5,999 bases of DNA from a virus. The notes beneath the pieces are model-generated. The model had not been told where the DNA came from. It did not search any database and worked only from the letters and a program-made list of their open reading frames with translations. Positions 1,594 to 5,770 of this stretch are shown piece by piece (within the stretch, counting starts at the first letter, position 1; each line of letters opens with the position of its first letter). The position numbers and the translations under genes were made by a program. The stretch is from IMG/VR virus record IMGVR_UViG_3300023493_000085. One strand, written 5' to 3'.

Positions 1594-3273
1594 TCAAACC
1601 TTACGGTTAATAATATTATTAGCATCATTCTGTTTCTTATGCTTAATCATATCACGACAGTATGTCGCACTACGATACCGGAGTTGCTCAAGAAGTTGAA
1701 CCGTTTCACTTGAAATATTCGACAAGACTTCCGACTCGCACCCGTTCTGAGGCAACGCAAACATACAATCCGATATGTTCGGGTTCGCGGAACGTACGAT
1801 GAACGAATCGCGTAAACTTTCATAATCTTTTTTCTTTTCATATTCTATGCCTGTTTTAATGATAAACATAATACGACCGGAATAAGCACTAATATCAGAA
1901 CCGAAGAGAGGCAAATGCCAGTTACGGAAGAATTTATAGACATATAAAAACAACCGATACAACCTATTAATATAAGATTCAATATCGACATCACTAGAAC
2001 AGTTGACAAACCTAGTAAGACACCGAGCAGCATGTAATATAATTTTATCATCATCAGATAGAATCAAATTAACCTTAAGATATTGATAATAAACACGAAC
2101 AAGACTCAAGATTGAACCTTGTTCATAGTCGATGAATCCGAACCTTGCAATTCTTGCTGGCGTCGAGTGCACAGCTCGAAGAATTCGAGCAATCGCAACA
2201 CTATCATCATTGCGAGCAGACGAGAATCGGGGCAATAAGGTACGGATATACGACATGGGTGGAGTCGAGCGAACACTGATTCCGTTGAAATTATAGATTT
2301 TTCCGTTAACGACAGAATCGATTCTTTGTTCAATTTGCGCATAAGGGTCTTCGTCTTCAAAGAAATCACAGCCTTTTTCAAAAAATCCGATAGATGCTCG
2401 CGATCGGGGTCTAAACGCGCGGCATGACCGATATAGTAAGGGAGCAGAACACAAGCTGTTAACGTAACTCGCAACGTACGAAGCAGCTCCACCAGCGGCA
2501 CGTTGGAAATCTGAACGACCGAGGTTCCAACTCTTATCGTGACAGTATCGTAAAACCTTGGCGACTTCATCCGAGTTCGTGAATAGTATGAGATGGAAAT
2601 GCGGGCGGAAGTGCACAGGGCCGTACTCGCCCACAGCGTAGAAATGTAACGTTTCATAAGAACCTAGCTTTTTGAATAAATGTTTACGTAAGCGTTTTAT
2701 ATAATTCTGAACGTCAACGTAGTTCAGGAAGGGTATAAGGTTATCAAGACCGTATTGTTCAGCAGCGGGATATGTCGAGTTATCCACGGACTGCGTTTTA
2801 CAGATAAAGCTACGAATAGCATCCATACTAAGAAACCAATTATCCTTAACAGGAACATATTCCTTAATTTCACGGTCAAACGGCACTGTGCCTTGAACCT
2901 GTTCGAAGAATATATGATGAAGCGCGGAGTTATCATTACACTGATATTCGGAAACAGGGATATACTGATGATGTTCATAACCAAAATGATTATCTCCCGA
3001 AATACCTACAACGTCCTCATAGTCACTACAGAGTACCTTACAACACATAAGGGGAAGATGTTCATTATCATACGTTAGAGTAACAAAAAAAGAATGCTTA
3101 AAAGCACTTCCAGCGGTCTTCACACGCATAGACGCTTTTTGAGCACGCTTATAGATACAGTAATCGCATTGACCACAATCTACGGCAATACGCGCACCAG
3201 TGTACTTATTTGTAATAAATGAACGATGTTGACAATGATCAACCGTTTTAAATAAATCGGGAGAAAACTTCAT
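1594..3273 (-). CDS. VP4: Rolling-circle replication initiation protein (HUH endonuclease; VP4 / phiX174 gene A-like)
   Basis: This is the 567-aa track ORF (1594..3297). The track start at 3297 is TTG, and the first ATG is at 3273 (MKFSPDLF..., 559 aa). Motif I FFVTLTYD is at 3070-3093. The HUH motif HFRPHFHLILF is at 2581-2613. The double catalytic Tyr motif YVASYVN is at 2458-2478 (phiX174 A has YVAKYVNK). An N-terminal Cys cluster CGQCDYC is at 3157-3177. The stop is TGA at 1596-1594. Confidence 0.93.
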   Translation of the reverse strand: MKFSPDLFKTVDHCQHRSFITNKYTGARIAVDCGQCDYCIYKRAQKASMRVKTAGSAFKHSFFVTLTYDNEHLPLMCCKVLCSDYEDVVGISGDNHFGYEHHQYIPVSEYQCNDNSALHHIFFEQVQGTVPFDREIKEYVPVKDNWFLSMDAIRSFICKTQSVDNSTYPAAEQYGLDNLIPFLNYVDVQNYIKRLRKHLFKKLGSYETLHFYAVGEYGPVHFRPHFHLILFTNSDEVAKVLRYCHDKSWNLGRSDFQRAAGGAASYVASYVNSLCSAPLLYRSCRAFRPRSRASIGFFEKGCDFFEDEDPYAQIEQRIDSVVNGKIYNFNGISVRSTPPMSYIRTLLPRFSSARNDDSVAIARILRAVHSTPARIARFGFIDYEQGSILSLVRVYYQYLKVNLILSDDDKIILHAARCLTRFVNCSSDVDIESYINRLYRLFLYVYKFFRNWHLPLFGSDISAYSGRIMFIIKTGIEYEKKKDYESLRDSFIVRSANPNISDCMFALPQNGCESEVLSNISSETVQLLEQLRYRSATYCRDMIKHKKQNDANNIINRKV

Positions 3274-3325
3274 ATAGCCAAGAGCCTGTAACGGCAATAA
3301 ATATAAAAATAAACAATAAAATCAA

Positions 3326-3409
3326 TCAAACGCCAATGGCACTAAGAATATAGCCTAGAGCAGCAGAAATAGCACCAATAACAATTTTCCAAATATAACT
3401 ACTTTTCAT
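3326..3409 (-). CDS. 27-aa single-pass membrane peptide (hypothetical)
   Basis: ATG at 3409-3407, TGA at 3328-3326. Hand translation: MKSSYIWKIVIGAISAALGYILSAIGV, a short polar N-terminus followed by a 19-residue Gly/Ala/Ser-rich hydrophobic helix. Codons mostly end in T (ATT GTT ATT GGT GCT ATT TCT GCT GCT), as in the other phage genes. The start overlaps the stop of the 64-aa gene by 11 nt. It corresponds to the last 27 codons of the otherwise unconvincing 106-aa track ORF. Confidence 0.45.
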   Translation of the reverse strand: MKSSYIWKIVIGAISAALGYILSAIGV

Positions 3410-3593
3410 TGTCTTGAGTTTTAAGTTCAACGAAATCATTTTCTTCCTTAATCGAGTCCACAATAACAATAAGACCCAGTCGAGAAACTCGTTCAGAATA
3501 ATATCCAAGACCCTCGAGAGAATTAACAACATAAGGCGGAATAACATCACGACCAGTAATTTTTTCCTTGACGGAAATAATAAATTTTTGCAT
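3399..3593 (-). CDS. Hypothetical 64-aa protein
   Basis: Track ORF with a true ATG (3593-3591) and TAG stop (3401-3399). It has a normal mixed amino-acid composition and T-ending codon bias like the neighbouring genes. It lies directly downstream of a Bacteroides-type promoter. Its N-terminal half has a diverged paralogue at 4041-4154. I recognise no family. Confidence 0.65.
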   Translation of the reverse strand: MQKFIISVKEKITGRDVIPPYVVNSLEGLGYYSERVSRLGLIVIVDSIKEENDFVELKTQDNEK

Positions 3594-3643
3594 AATTGTA
3601 AAATGTTTAAAATGTTAATAATAGTTGTAACTTCTACAGCGGA

Positions 3644-3675
3644 CAAAAGTATATTTTTTTTTCTGTATTTCCAAA
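3644..3675 (-). promoter_or_regulatory. Candidate Bacteroidota-type promoter (-33 TTTG, 20-nt spacer, -7 TAnnTTTG)
   Basis: The minus strand reads CTATTTGG AAATACAGAAAAAAAAATA TACTTTTG TCC. TTTG is at 3675-3672, the spacer is 20 nt (3671-3652), and TACTTTTG is at 3651-3644. This matches the published Bacteroides consensus TTTG / TAnnTTTG. It sits about 50 nt upstream of the 64-aa gene ATG. The spacer contains an A9 homopolymer (3662-3654). Confidence 0.45.
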
Positions 3676-3722
3676 TAGTTTTTTAAATATTATGGAGAAA
3701 GGGCCATTGGAGGTATGGTGTG

Positions 3723-3792
3723 AGTTGTGCGTTTATGGACGAGGATCGGGAGAAACCGAGATGATAACTCGGGTTTTGCTTCGCACACAACT
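3723..3792 (-). repeat. Inverted repeat: 7-bp closing helix around an inner 8-bp hairpin
   Basis: Plus strand agttgtg (3723-3729) pairs with cacaact (3786-3792). Inside, aaaccgag (3753-3760) pairs with ctcgggttt (3768-3776, one bulged g), with a 7-nt loop atgataa. Confidence 0.55.
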
Positions 3793-3815
3793 AGGGGCTT
3801 CGCTTAATTAACAAA

Positions 3816-3844
3816 TCCTGGATCCATTACTAATAGATCCAGGA
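3816..3844 (-). repeat. Perfect 9-bp stem with 11-nt AT-rich loop
   Basis: Plus strand tcctggatc (3816-3824) and gatccagga (3836-3844) are exact reverse complements. The loop is cattactaata (3825-3835), which reads TATTAGTAATG on the minus strand. Confidence 0.85.
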
Positions 3845-3856
3845 GAGAAGTGGATA

Positions 3857-3872
3857 TATACAAAGGTGTATA
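3857..3872 (-). repeat. Perfect 6-bp stem with 4-nt loop
   Basis: Plus strand tataca (3857-3862) pairs with tgtata (3867-3872). The loop is aagg (3863-3866). Confidence 0.5.
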
Positions 3873-3877
3873 GACAC

Positions 3878-3899
3878 GGCAGATCAGATAGAATCTGCC
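3878..3899 (-). repeat. Perfect 7-bp stem with 8-nt loop
   Basis: Plus strand ggcagat (3878-3884) pairs with atctgcc (3893-3899). The loop is cagataga (3885-3892). Confidence 0.8.
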
Positions 3900-3925
3900 T
3901 TTGCGCACCTTCGTGCTAAAATACC

Positions 3926-3962
3926 GAAGCGGAACGCTTCTCTAAGGAAGTCGCTCCGCTCC
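3926..3962 (-). repeat. 15-pair hairpin with one bulge and a 6-nt loop; folds better on the minus strand
   Basis: Minus strand 5'-GGAGCGGA GCGACTTC CTTAGA GAAGCGT TCCGCTTC-3'. It has 13 Watson-Crick pairs, 2 G-T(U) wobbles and one bulged A. On the plus strand the two wobble positions become A-C mismatches. Confidence 0.75.
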
Positions 3963-3975
3963 ATATTTCGATCAG

Positions 3976-4022
3976 GCCCTACGCGGGCGGCGGGTGTATA
4001 TCGCTCATACGCCGCGATGGGC
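3976..4022 (-). repeat. GC-rich irregular hairpin
   Basis: Plus strand gccc (3976-3979) pairs with gggc (4019-4022). The inner part can pair as cgcgg (3982-3986) with ccgcg (4012-4016), or alternatively as gcggcg (3987-3992) with cgccgc (4010-4015). There is an apical gtat/atac pairing at 3996-3999 and 4007-4010. Confidence 0.6.
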
Positions 4023-4040
4023 TTTTAGTCCTGAAGTATG

Positions 4041-4154
4041 CTACTGATTTCGGTATTTGGGAATTATATGATACGTCAAGGCATCATCCATAGAATTAAC
4101 AACTAAGGAAAATACAACCTTGCGACCATCTTTAATTCTTGCTTCGTAACACAT
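4041..4154 (-). CDS. 37-aa ORF: truncated, diverged paralogue of the N-terminal half of the 64-aa protein (may be a gene remnant rather than a functional gene)
   Basis: ATG at 4154-4152, TAG at 4043-4041. Hand translation: MCYEARIKDGRKVVFSLVVNSMDDALTYHIIPKYRNQ. The segment DGRKVVFSLVVNSMDDALTY aligns without gaps to TGRDVIPPYVVNSLEGLGYY of the 64-aa protein (8 of 20 identical). The alignment includes an identical 12-nt core GTTGTTAATTCT. The ORF is below the 60-aa track cutoff. Confidence 0.35.
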   Translation of the reverse strand: MCYEARIKDGRKVVFSLVVNSMDDALTYHIIPKYRNQ

Positions 4155-4214
4155 AATCTTAATTTTAATAGTTATTATTAGTTCTTTTCTGCATTACAAA
4201 GATACAAAATAGTT

Positions 4215-5330
4215 TTACTTACGGCCAATGCTATTGCCAACACCTTGAAATATACGAGTACCATAATCGAGAGCATTACGAAGCTCATAAGAATTAACAT
4301 CTTTCTGTTTCTGTTTAGAACTCCATTTATAGTAATCACGAACAGCCTTTTCTTTAGAATACTCCATATTCTTAAGAACATTCACATGCTTAGAATCCCA
4401 TAATGAACCTAAACCACGAGCACGATTAGACTGAATATTAGCATAGATAAGAGAATCAGCAGTCTGAGAAGCAATCTTATTATTAATACGAATACCATTG
4501 GTCTCAGCAGCAGTTTTTACAGCCTTAGCCATCTCAGTTTTATACTGAGCCTCTGTAAGAGAGCCTTGTGCATACAGATTAGCAAGCGTCTGACCTTTAA
4601 TAAACAGATCAGCTTGCTGTTGCTCATCAAGATACTTATTAAGTATCTGTTGAGATTCAGAATCAAGCAGAATCTGTGCCTCTTGAGCCGACGTAAGACG
4701 ACCAGCAAATTCCATATTTTTAAGCTCCTGATATTCCTTAGACTGATCCAATAATGCAGATCGGCGGCCAGTAGACGCATCCCAAAAACCTGACTGGCCA
4801 ACACCAATATTGCGATAATTAGTATCGCCAAGAATTTGTTGTATCTTATACGGAGTAAGAGCGGCATTCTGTTCGGCGTTAAGCATAGCAGCGCGAGCCT
4901 GAGCCATAGAAGCAAGAGCAGAGCCTACATCAGAAAAATCAGGGCGAAACGCTTGTAAACTAGGCATACCAGCAGAAGAAGCAACAGCACCACCTGAAGC
5001 AGGGGACTTAGAGCCAGCCAAAGCGGCAGAACCTTGAACAAACGGATTCAGGCCACGAGAAATCATAGCATTAGGGGAGTTATAGGAATTATTCATTCCC
5101 CACATTTTCTCTTGCCAATCACGCTGAATCTGAGCCTGATGAGCATTAAATGCATTATTCTCACGATTAATATCGATACTAGTCTGATTCGTCTTATGCT
5201 GAGAAAAAGATCCGATCGCATTGCCAGCAAGAGAAGCGCCGGCAGCAATAATACCACCAACAACAAGCGGAGCAATATGTTTTTCGGAGTGCCCCATTAA
5301 GGGGCTTTCTCCAATATCATAGAATCTCAT
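4215..5330 (-). CDS. VP2: Minor capsid / DNA pilot protein VP2 (phiX174 H-like)
   Basis: 371-aa track ORF with a true ATG at 5330, in an ATGA overlap with the stop of the upstream gene. It has an N-terminal Gly/Ala-rich hydrophobic segment (APLVVGGIIAAGASLAGNAIG). The block QRDWQEKMWGMNNSYNSPNAMISRGLNPF resembles the W..(R/K)M...(A/R)GLNP block I recall from microvirus VP2 proteins. The centre is long, Q/A/E-rich and probably coiled coil. Size and position are typical for VP2. Confidence 0.8.
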   Translation of the reverse strand: MRFYDIGESPLMGHSEKHIAPLVVGGIIAAGASLAGNAIGSFSQHKTNQTSIDINRENNAFNAHQAQIQRDWQEKMWGMNNSYNSPNAMISRGLNPFVQGSAALAGSKSPASGGAVASSAGMPSLQAFRPDFSDVGSALASMAQARAAMLNAEQNAALTPYKIQQILGDTNYRNIGVGQSGFWDASTGRRSALLDQSKEYQELKNMEFAGRLTSAQEAQILLDSESQQILNKYLDEQQQADLFIKGQTLANLYAQGSLTEAQYKTEMAKAVKTAAETNGIRINNKIASQTADSLIYANIQSNRARGLGSLWDSKHVNVLKNMEYSKEKAVRDYYKWSSKQKQKDVNSYELRNALDYGTRIFQGVGNSIGRK

Positions 5331-5770
5331 TGAGCAGAAGCGTCAGGGGCGGGCGACGGATCGGGCGCTGACTGTTGCTCTGCCAACATTGCTTCGGCAT
5401 AAGCCGTTAGCTCAGATTTTTCGCTAGCCAACTGTTGCAACACAGCTTGGCGTTCCGATATCGTCTGACAATGACGAGAAATAACACAAGCGAATCGCTC
5501 TTCATCAGTCATACCATCCATAACAGTAGACTGAGTAGGATGCATCTGAGCAAGAATGTTCTGAACACTCATATCACCAAGTAAACGACGATACTTCTCC
5601 TGATGCAATAAGATTTGTGTCATATCGACCTGAATTAAATCACCATCAGGGGATTCGTCATACATAACTGAATCATATACAGATTCCTGATAACATGGAT
5701 GGTTTTCAACCAACTCGGGAACAAAATCATCCTTAATAAAATCGGAATTTTTATAAGCAAAATCTCTCAT
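5327..5770 (-). CDS. Acidic protein of about 147 aa, putative internal scaffolding protein (VP3-like)
   Basis: The track ORF 5327..5779 begins at TTG (5779). The first ATG is at 5770 (MRDFAYKNSDF...). The protein is strongly acidic with a Pro/Ala/Ser-rich tail (SAPDPSPAPDASAQ). It lies between VP1 and VP2 and is translationally coupled to VP2 (ATGA at 5330-5327). The functional call rests on size, charge and position only. Confidence 0.6.
   Translation of the reverse strand: MRDFAYKNSDFIKDDFVPELVENHPCYQESVYDSVMYDESPDGDLIQVDMTQILLHQEKYRRLLGDMSVQNILAQMHPTQSTVMDGMTDEERFACVISRHCQTISERQAVLQQLASEKSELTAYAEAMLAEQQSAPDPSPAPDASAQ

Follow-up and report, generated by a model that had tools for sequence, protein, structure and literature searches.

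A conserved 96-nt four-way junction in the intergenic gap of Bacteroidota microviruses as a candidate single-stranded DNA origin

The question raised by this locus is why a small phage should keep a long, structured gap between two of its genes. The window, i.e., the whole stretch of 5,999 nucleotides of IMG/VR record IMGVR_UViG_3300023493_000085, is a circular microvirus genome of 5944 nt plus a 55-nt terminal redundancy, with the genes all on its minus strand. Since the Microviridae package the strand that carries the gene sense, the minus strand of the window is both the virion DNA and the mRNA-sense strand. As stated in the original prediction, the stop of the pilot protein gene VP2 (4215) and the ATG of a 64-aa gene (3593) are separated by 621 nt (3594-4214), within which a chain of hairpins extends over 3691-4040. 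Three readings had been offered for this chain, namely (a) a complementary-strand origin or priming signal acting on single-stranded DNA (ssDNA), (b) a structured 3' untranslated region (UTR) or non-coding RNA (ncRNA), and (c) a horizontally acquired module. We find reading (a) the best supported, mainly for the 3792-3723 helix of the original prediction, which is extended here to 3811-3716 and referred to as the 3' module. This module is ancient, precisely bounded and strongly covarying, and it marks a large lineage of Bacteroidota microviruses and proviruses. By analogy with the origin of phage G4 and with the single-strand initiation (ssi) and single-strand origin (sso) signals of plasmids, it may be a complementary-strand priming origin on ssDNA, to which we give a rough probability of 45%; the broader claim that it is a DNA-level replication origin of either strand is, judged from the sequence, the probable one. 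To our knowledge, neither the complementary-strand start nor the location of the origin has been established in microviruses outside the phiX174/G4 group. Microviruses associated with Bacteroidota rank among the most common phages in the gut of mammals.

The structure of the hairpin chain is confirmed, but the chain is not a single unit. The G+C content of 3691-4040 is 48.9% (171/350) compared to 39.9% in the genome and 19.6% and 29.3% in the two flanks, which upholds the GC-enriched core between AT-rich flanks but not the hand count of 164/330, as 3711-4040 holds 161/330. Stops occur in all six frames of 3691-4040, the longest open stretch being 63 codons, in agreement with its description as free of open reading frames (ORFs). 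The region folds better than every dinucleotide shuffle on both strands and with both parameter sets, with z-scores of -5.13 (RNA, minus strand), -5.53 (RNA, plus), -5.74 (DNA, minus) and -4.80 (DNA, plus) and 0/100 shuffles as good. Because z lies between -4.8 and -5.7 whichever strand or parameter set is used, the folding energy confirms the structure and picks no strand. The idea that the structure is better on the packaged and transcribed strand holds for the 5' part, where G·T and A·C cells are asymmetric, and not for folding energy; the strand is chosen solely from this asymmetry and from the loop motifs, and the z-scores discriminate neither strand nor molecule. Most of the predicted hairpins were recovered at their coordinates: two G·T pairs occur in the 15-pair hairpin (3962-3926), the two short stems span 3899-3878 and 3872-3857, and an 8-bp hairpin is nested within the 7-bp helix of 3792-3723. 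Together, however, they form two separable modules and one insertion rather than one element. The original prediction had named unexceptional folding, a lack of compensatory pairing and a protein spanning the region as grounds for its own rejection; instead, the shuffles are beaten, compensatory pairings are abundant and a region-spanning protein is absent. The parts of the 3' module are as follows.

3716-3811, minus strand: 3' module, a 96-nt four-way junction, proposed ssDNA origin or priming signal; 107 bits with covariance model R1
3797-3803, minus strand: minihairpin 1, GCGAAGC, with a C-GAA-G triloop; the loop is G-N-A in 97/98 cross-clade instances
3723-3792, minus strand: closing stem of 7 bp, AGTTGTG (3792-3786) with CACAACT (3729-3723), enclosing the junction
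3777-3785, minus strand: minihairpin 2, TGCGAAGCA, with a C-GAA-G triloop, stacked directly on the closing stem
3753-3775, minus strand: long hairpin with the 7-nt loop TTATCAT; 8 consensus pairs, with one C·U mismatch in the window
3730-3752, minus strand: unpaired pyrimidine tract ending in CTCGTCC, with a weak 3-bp hairpin; clade-weighted consensus tCnnyCyyCyctygtCy
3718-3722, minus strand: CACAC tail directly 3' of the closing stem; ACA invariant across clades

The explicit structure, consisting of minihairpin 1, the 7-bp closing stem, minihairpin 2, the 8-bp hairpin with its 7-nt loop and the weak 3-bp hairpin, was tested on a MAFFT alignment of 26 representatives. It was 96.5% paired in this alignment as opposed to 18-41% in slid controls, 13 of the 23 pairs changed on both sides, and none of 500 shuffles matched it. 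A larger cross-clade alignment gave 99.1% pairing cells (29-42% when slid) and compensatory change at 21/23 pairs; this alignment was fitted to a covariance model and leans towards it, so that the MAFFT alignment serves as the independent check. Changes on both sides occur across clades at 6/7 pairs of the closing stem, with variants such as AGTTGCG/CGCAACT, AGTTCAA/TTGAACT and GAGTTTG/CAAACTC, and at 8/8 pairs of the long hairpin. In minihairpin 2, 3/3 pairs covary and about 91 of 98 loops are GNA or G-initial tetraloops of kinds that are stable as DNA (e.g., GAAA, GAAC, GAAT), and the stem of minihairpin 1 shows compensatory GC to AT changes. The weak hairpin in the tract keeps a conserved T·G or C-G pair (alignment pairs 102:121 etc.). 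Three features survive across clades: the two C-GNA-G minihairpins, the unpaired pyrimidine tract within the junction, with its CTYGTCY end, and the ACA that directly follows the closing stem. The tract at 3730-3752 is a candidate region for initiation or nicking. Two pairings proposed by RNAalifold on the first alignment were dropped because they show no covariation: a long-range pairing 14-18:211-215, which is also impossible in the genomes that carry only the 3' part, and a hairpin TTGTT/AGCGA, which conflicts with minihairpin 1.

The distribution of the module is wide, and its position is constant. The core of the whole element, including the 5' domain, keeps 72-84% identity in 34 microviruses recorded in GenBank (sampled from dog, human and lemur), the genomes of which are otherwise about 70-74% identical. 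In IMG/VR, exact-motif scans for this core yielded 99 and 113 contigs, and at least 120 further contigs came from metagenomes, chiefly of the human gut; all contigs with a motif are of microvirus size or are concatemers with copies about 6.1 kb apart. The covariance model R1, built from the 26-representative alignment, also matches in sister genomes, always in gene-strand orientation within the gap that follows the pilot gene, even though their Rep is only 26-29% identical to that of the window. The scores are 70 bits in L142, 36 in L141, 31 in L144 and L145, 18 in L146 and 12 (E 0.66) in L143, the last rising to 24 bits with a second, later model, R2. In addition, R1 matches 63 of 66 Dulem-257-like IMG/VR genomes, the three misses being partial contigs, and a further clade (L213-217). 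Genomes outside the training set are matched by R2 as well, among them Tortoise microvirus 40 (58 bits), Dulem virus 256 (43) and Microvirus mar47 (26), and so are 12/26 proviruses of Prevotella, Xylanibacter, Bacteroides, Muribaculaceae and Paraprevotella. The module was present in every locus of the element's clade that was examined and, at one fixed position across very divergent clades, in every complete genome examined, and it spans about ten Rep-divergent microvirus lineages (Rep identity down to about 26%) and Bacteroidota proviruses.

The boundaries of this distribution are equally clear. No match to R2 was found in phiX174, G4 or the gokushovirus Chp2, and no module copy outside microvirus genomes or proviruses was found in the cellular-genome and metagenome scans. 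Exact scans with two motifs gave 0 matches in 185,579 species-representative cellular genomes, as did the capsid of the window used as a query against cellular genomes; the proviruses of relatives were located only with a capsid profile. The Rep proteins of L144 and L141 found no relatives in IMG/VR. Weak nhmmer matches that looked like second copies of the 3' domain downstream were spurious and fall in the 64-aa gene. We found no prior description of the module in the full-text literature, and microviruses are not mentioned in the text of a survey of more than 10,000 motifs in viruses (PMC10690425); the module appears to be undescribed so far.

Whether the module acts as DNA or as RNA can be approached from its pairing. 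Its three well-supported helices change by Watson-Crick switching, with less than 1% G·T and less than 1% A·C cells, while the neighbouring 5' domain has 9.2% G·T. The minimum-energy fold with DNA parameters is identical to the covariation structure, whereas the fold with RNA parameters does not match it. Both minihairpins fit the rules for mini-hairpin DNA, having a C-G closing pair, a GNA triloop and GC/GC or CC/GG stems. According to the literature on these structures, only GNA triloops work, and GC/GC and CC/GG stems as well as GAAB loops are tolerated (PMC13037366). They melt at 65-76°C as DNA (76.5°C for d(GCGAAGC) and d(GCGAAAGC)) as opposed to 39°C for r(GCGAAAGC), and they bind single-stranded DNA-binding protein (SSB) poorly (PMC13037366). 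They are located at the primer-synthesis site of the complementary-strand origins of G4, St-1 and alpha3 and also occur in ssiA of RSF1010 (CCGAAGG) and in the ssDNA promoters of phage N4 (PMC13037366). Pairing statistics, loop motifs, folding and position of the 3' module thus point to a role at the DNA level.

The rival explanation is that the element works as RNA, as a structured 3' UTR, a small RNA derived from it or a processing or stability signal, in which case the 3' module might be a tRNA-like processing site. The folded strand is indeed the mRNA-sense strand, helices H1 and H2 of the 5' domain directly follow the VP2 stop in relatives, and H2 resembles a terminator, evolves by the G·U steps typical of RNA and reaches an RNA z-score of -5.4 together with H3. 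Moreover, terminators upstream of the module are not universal, and read-through RNA may include it. For the 3' module itself, however, G·U is nearly absent despite frequent pair switching, the triloop type is weak in RNA and very stable in DNA, and the RNA minimum-energy fold misses the supported structure. It also lies upstream of the promoter and not in a 5' leader. A scan of the whole window against 4227 Rfam families (cmscan, E<=10) found nothing in the gap, and ARAGORN found no tRNA or tmRNA fold; as far as the sensitivity of the two programs reaches, this rules out a known RNA family or a tRNA-like fold. We consider an RNA function of the element as a whole unlikely and one of the 3' module improbable to the same degree. 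An RNA reading is likely for H2 of the 5' domain, and reading (b) of the original prediction is plausible for the upstream hairpins, i.e., the 15-pair hairpin with its U-run and its G·U intermediates, rather than for the 3' module.

The region is best explained as a compact control region of the viral strand, the packaged strand with the gene sense, in which the 3' module would act as folded ssDNA. Its two stable C-GNA-G minihairpins and two Watson-Crick helices would form a junction that presumably resists coating by SSB and displays the unpaired tract ending in CTYGTCY and the 3' ACA. After injection of the ssDNA, a host priming enzyme would recognise the junction and start the complementary strand at or near it. 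This enzyme would most likely be the DnaG primase, as at the G4 origin, with PriA or RNA polymerase less likely. Priming would turn the genome into its double-stranded replicative form, on which the adjacent promoter could then be active. The 5' domain would be a clade-specific accessory, the 15-pair hairpin and U-run of which may end the capsid/pilot transcript.

The closest known counterparts are the complementary-strand origins (oric) of G4, St-1, alpha3 and phiK. Like these, the module is non-coding and intergenic, lies on the viral strand and consists of a cluster of stable hairpins including a minihairpin of the GCG(N)NAGC type. All clades have it on the gene-sense strand, in the gap that follows the pilot gene. 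Its stable hairpins include C-GNA-G minihairpins (97/98 and about 91/98 instances for the first and the second), the likeness to G4 lying in the type of hairpin. The proposed role is also shared, namely to stay free of SSB and to recruit primase. In the G4 record, hairpin I carries GCGAAAGC, the annotated primer covers 3970-3997, and the origin is at 3998 in CTG; the minihairpin of the G4 oric is thus in the primer-copied stretch and the single-stranded initiation site is just 3' of the structure. The G4 oric differs, however, in having three separate hairpins between genes F and G, whereas here one four-way junction with two minihairpins follows the pilot gene, and neither R1 nor R2 detects homology in sequence or structure.

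Several points weigh against a complementary-strand priming origin. The comparison with G4 is an analogy only, because R1 and R2 match nothing in G4 or phiX174, and no start site can be named, as the G4 start triplet CTG was defined for the DnaG of Escherichia coli and the host here belongs to the Bacteroidota. The scarcity of G·T in helices of 7-8 bp and the GNA loops are suggestive of a role as DNA and are not proof of it. Taken alone, the 3' module is thermodynamically unexceptional (z about -1.7). Its strand is also that of the mRNA, so that read-through RNA would include it, and terminator-like hairpins upstream of it are only about 2-fold enriched across clades (31/89). Furthermore, it adjoins the promoter of the rep operon and the attachment (att) site, a position that fits a viral-strand origin equally well.

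A viral-strand (plus) origin is a rival at the DNA level. In this case, the rolling-circle Rep protein (VP4) would nick and re-ligate the strand in the tract, at CTYG|TCY, or at the ACA tail, and the helices would extrude from the supercoiled replicative form and re-form on the displaced ssDNA for termination; the module could even serve both origins. Symmetric Watson-Crick helices, with G·T and A·C both below 1%, would be expected if both strands pair in a cruciform, and the short single-stranded motifs are invariant across Rep clades, with no other sequence of at least 9 nt common to all clades anywhere in the genomes when these were searched for nick-site candidates. The module is located just upstream of the promoter of the rep-containing operon, and many rolling-circle plasmids and circular Rep-encoding single-stranded DNA (CRESS) viruses have their origin near the rep promoter. 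On the other hand, the GNA loops and the T·G pair are specific to the viral strand, as the other strand would give TNC and A·C, and a four-helix junction exceeds the needs of known HUH nick sites.

The comparison with phiX174 bears on the same rival. Both phages belong to the same virus family and have an HUH-type Rep, and the tract of the module (…CTYGTCY with an AT-rich stretch) is loosely like the phiX174 origin. The phiX174 origin (L218, 4292-4343) combines a pyrimidine run, CTTG and an AT-rich stretch, and it is nicked at 4306 with the minihairpin CCCCGAAGGGG 24 nt downstream. It was also observed that CCCCGAAGGGG is the commonest variant of minihairpin 2 in the sister clades. When the two are aligned at CTTG, however, about 9/22 positions agree by eye, close to what chance would give in AT-rich DNA, and the phiX 18-mer origin core CAACTTGATATTAATAAC… is absent from the window (0 matches at up to 3 mismatches). 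The motif order differs as well, and it is established that origins of the phiX family lie inside gene A, the rep gene, and do not need a hairpin. We regard a plus origin as unlikely, at about the level of an RNA function. A likeness of CTCTTGTCCATAAAC to the gene II binding region of f1 was set aside as evidence.

Folded ssDNA signals of other replicons resemble the proposed priming origin in part. RSF1010 ssiA and ssiB and the plasmid signals ssoA, ssoT, ssoU and ssoW are likewise strand- and orientation-specific folded ssDNA of about 40-300 nt at which the lagging strand starts, and the CCGAAGG minihairpin of ssiA is the commonest variant of minihairpin 2 of the module. In contrast to the module, ssiA is a single hairpin read by the plasmid-encoded primase RepB', and no primase gene is evident in the 5.9-kb genome. 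The sso signals depend on RNA polymerase and a promoter-like duplex, of which there is no sign here, and the ssoA hallmark CS-6 (TAGCGT/A) is absent from the element, the only TAGCGW in the window being at 5421-5426, outside it. The Ff phages (M13, f1, fd) are likewise small ssDNA phages with a single large non-coding stretch, their intergenic region, which is a chain of hairpins with densely packed DNA-level signals. This region holds the minus origin, the plus origin and the packaging signal side by side; here, a terminator, the folded module, the att site of temperate relatives and the main promoter are packed together. Unlike in Ff, there is no evidence of a packaging signal. The two are not homologous, and the M13 minus origin consists of two long hairpins that mimic a sigma-70 promoter, whereas no promoter-like site was found within 3716-4036 and the helices of the module are only 3-8 bp long. 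Lacking homology to G4, the CS-6 motif and a promoter-like duplex, the module belongs to none of these families.

The transcription context is set by a promoter that was read from the sequence downstream of the module.

3644-3675, minus strand: Bacteroidota-type promoter with -33 TTTG (3675-3672), a 20-nt spacer and -7 TACTTTTG (3651-3644)

The original prediction had placed the promoter downstream of the element in the minus sense, which is confirmed and sharpened to 3675-3644. In a search with the consensus TTTG-N17-23-TAnnTTTG, 75/89 genomes have a full consensus that begins no more than 200 nt downstream of the module, at a spacing that is fixed within each clade; there are 1.29 consensus promoters per genome and 0.04 expected by position. 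An A-run precedes the promoter site at its clade-fixed distance. The pattern suggests that a single main promoter drives transcription around the circle. With the promoter at 3675-3644, the transcription unit begins just past the module, and a transcript of genome length would reach the module only at its very end. The module is outside the unit driven by this promoter, the only one with a full consensus, which follows at a distance of 25-50 nt. Two terminator-like hairpins precede the module in the window. The notion that it always lies between a terminator and a promoter was dropped, since only the promoter half is established and the terminator enrichment is merely about 2-fold.

In the proviruses of relatives, the gene order is Rep, capsid, pilot, module. 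Loci L346-L371 (e.g., L347, 13916-14100; L346, 5966-6150) were observed in Prevotella, Xylanibacter, Bacteroides, Muribaculaceae, Paraprevotella and Hoylesella; a few loci carry an assignment to Firmicutes or other phyla (Oscillibacter, Lachnospiraceae, Flexilinea), perhaps through errors in binning. In the proviruses the module is intact, and the att direct repeats (13-22 nt) follow it at a distance of 42-64 nt, with dif-like ATGTTAAAT motifs ahead of them. Since integration at dif-like sites upstream of rep is described for related proviruses of Bacteroidales (PMC3091885), the fold could be part of an Xer/dif-type attachment site that serves integration in single-stranded form, as in CTXphi, and the closeness of the repeats and their motifs would agree with this. 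The crossover, however, is outside the module, which stays intact within the provirus and lacks a 28-bp dif-like duplex. The clade of the window has the module, and yet 0 proviruses of it were found in the 185,579 genomes with the two motifs and the capsid, nor does any metagenome contig exceed concatemer length. The provirus junctions largely refute this reading, which we rate as very unlikely; the module adjoins the crossover and is not the crossover site. A likeness of GGTGCGCAAAG / TGTTAATTAAG to dif arms was likewise set aside, and the provirus junctions argue against it. On the plus strand of the window, AAATGTTTAAAATGTTAATAA at 3601-3625, in the 5' leader of the 64-aa gene, resembles the dif-like motifs ATGTTAAAG/TTATGTTAAT beside the provirus att sites; its orientation is opposite to that of the provirus motifs on the gene strand, and the resemblance may be a coincidence in AT-rich DNA.

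Upstream of the 3' module, the second part of the region is formed by the 5' domain and an insertion.

3857-4036, minus strand: 5' domain with the clade-specific helices Ha, X, Y and H2-H5; present in 133 loci examined
3976-4018, minus strand: revised H1, a hairpin ATCG/CGAT (4018-4015:4003-4000) with interleaved CGC/GCG and GCCC/GGGC
3992-3990:3984-3982 and 3988-3985:3979-3976, minus strand: the interleaved H1 helices, CGC/GCG and GCCC/GGGC, respectively
3918-3969, minus strand: H2, a 15+4-pair hairpin followed by GGTATTTTAG, found in the terminator scan
3905-3916, minus strand: H3, GCAC-GAAG-GTGC, closed by C-G, with a G-initial loop; AT to GC or GC to AT double change in 17/60 and no G·T
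3874-3904, minus strand: H4, a hairpin that includes the 7-bp stem 3899-3878; both sides change at 3 pairs, and 4 vary through G·U
3857-3872, minus strand: H5, 6 bp, TATACA/TGTATA; variable and absent from some relatives
3816-3844, minus strand: perfect 13-bp hairpin TCCTGGATC…GATCCAGGA with a T-rich tail, an insertion, found in the terminator scan

The structure of the 5' domain, scored on 60 diverse sequences, is 96.4% paired compared to 32-51% when slid, with 12 pairs changed on both sides. Over 110 homologues, its helices show 9.2% G·T as opposed to 1.5% A·C cells. The GC-rich irregular hairpin 4022-3976 of the original prediction is the energy-minimum fold, yet it has no covariation behind it and was rejected: it is 93.6% paired, 35/500 shuffles are as good, and unpaired cells pile up at varying columns. 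Three short helices, two of them interleaved, replace it with 99.6-100% pairing. The ATCG/CGAT hairpin changes from G-C to A-T and to C-G, the CGC/GCG helix from C-G to G-C to T-A; no variation is seen in the loop GATATACACCC. The interleaved helices (3976-3992) would form either a compact pseudoknot or alternative, mutually exclusive folds. In L112, the alternative partner GCCC at 4022-4019 is compensated instead, an observation that hints at a switch.

H2 is most likely an intrinsic terminator that ends the capsid/pilot transcript. The terminator scan matches the 3940-3926 stem with GGTATTTTAG, a G+C-rich stem-loop directly followed by a U-run, and H2 varies almost only by steps between G-C, G·U and A-U, never through A·C. 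The H2/H3 segment has minus-strand z-scores of -5.4 (RNA) and -4.2 (DNA). The stem described as a perfect 9-bp helix at 3844-3816 turned out to be the perfect 13-bp hairpin, an insertion in about 12 of 135 related genomes that resembles an additional terminator directly ahead of the 3' module.

The two modules are separable in nature. Profile searches showed that L119, L126, L129 and L134 carry just the last ~100 nt of the element, with a plain hairpin and then a T-run in place of the 5' domain; three of these four contigs are complete circles, as judged by their terminal repeats. The Rep of the complete genomes among them is 77-84% identical to that of the window, closer than in the Dulem viruses that have the 5' part, and because the 5' domain is missing from genomes so closely related, it is dispensable. 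L117 has kept only the 15-pair hairpin H2 and its T-run besides the 3' module, and in L112 about 150 nt are inserted between the two parts. This insertion (…CTGCATAGTCGAACCCAAAAAAGGAAGC…; L112, ~3620-3760) was also observed upstream of the 3' module in L129, so that it lies between the domains or replaces the 5' domain, and insertions concentrate at the junction that directly precedes the 3' module.

These gains and losses raise the third of the original readings, a horizontally acquired module, here taken together with a selfish module without a phage function and a cryptic coding gene. The region is built of modules: its 5' domain has been gained, lost or replaced, and insertions have entered it. 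Its G+C content is above that of the rest of the genome, and GenBank ORFs are annotated over the element in Dulem viruses 242 and 257. As a horizontally acquired module it lacks a donor in the 185,579 cellular genomes, and the 3' module occurs in every complete genome examined, in very divergent clades and at one fixed position. Coding is refuted, in line with the statement that the region is not a recoded gene: besides the stops in all frames of the window, a stop-free frame over at least 90% of the element exists in only 2/125 genomes, and the substitutions are base-pair compensatory. The annotated hypothetical proteins, which were observed at 585-911 in L006 (Dulem virus 242, XCD03858) and at 3581-3784 in L142 (Dulem virus 257, XCD03224), are probably annotation artefacts because they match no PHROG family and their frame is closed in nearly all relatives. 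We rate this explanation as the least probable of all.

Returning to the priming origin, the two modules can be combined into a single proposal that we regard as tentative and, as a whole, rather doubtful. The 96-nt junction would represent a new class of folded-ssDNA, 'DNA aptamer-like' origin that is built on two GNA minihairpins, read by the priming machinery of the Bacteroidota and common to a family-level lineage of abundant human-gut microviruses and their proviruses, while the 5' domain with its interleaved, pseudoknot-like helices and its GATATACACCC loop would be a second and independent functional nucleic acid, either an ncRNA derived from a 3' UTR or an ssDNA signal. The question becomes testable with a delimited candidate of about 96 nt, a covariance model, natural compensatory variants and natural deletions of the accessory domain. 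As a marker, the module can be used to find phages and proviruses of the lineage and flags mis-annotated hypothetical proteins. It would extend the link between minihairpins and ssDNA priming from enterobacterial systems to another phylum, and a minimal origin and promoter region could be a starting point for Bacteroides ssDNA vectors.

The neighbouring genes of the window and a small ORF inside the gap are listed below.

Wrapping around the window ends, minus strand: capsid protein VP1
1594-3297, minus strand: Rep/VP4, with a REP_ORF2-G2P domain
3399-3593, minus strand: 64-aa gene
4215-5330, minus strand: pilot protein VP2
Minus strand: 150-aa scaffold-like gene
4041-4154, minus strand: 37-aa ORF MCYEARIKDGRKVVFSLVVNSMDDALTYHIIPKYRNQ, inside the gap and separate from the structured element

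The 37-aa ORF modifies the description of the gap as wholly non-coding, since 4154-4041 encodes a protein with conserved homologues. It has no match among the PHROG families, and its homologues (M·YE·RIK·GRKVVFS) were found in three genomes, those of Dulem viruses 254 and 255 and one IMG/VR genome. It is probably a real small gene that is present in some relatives only.

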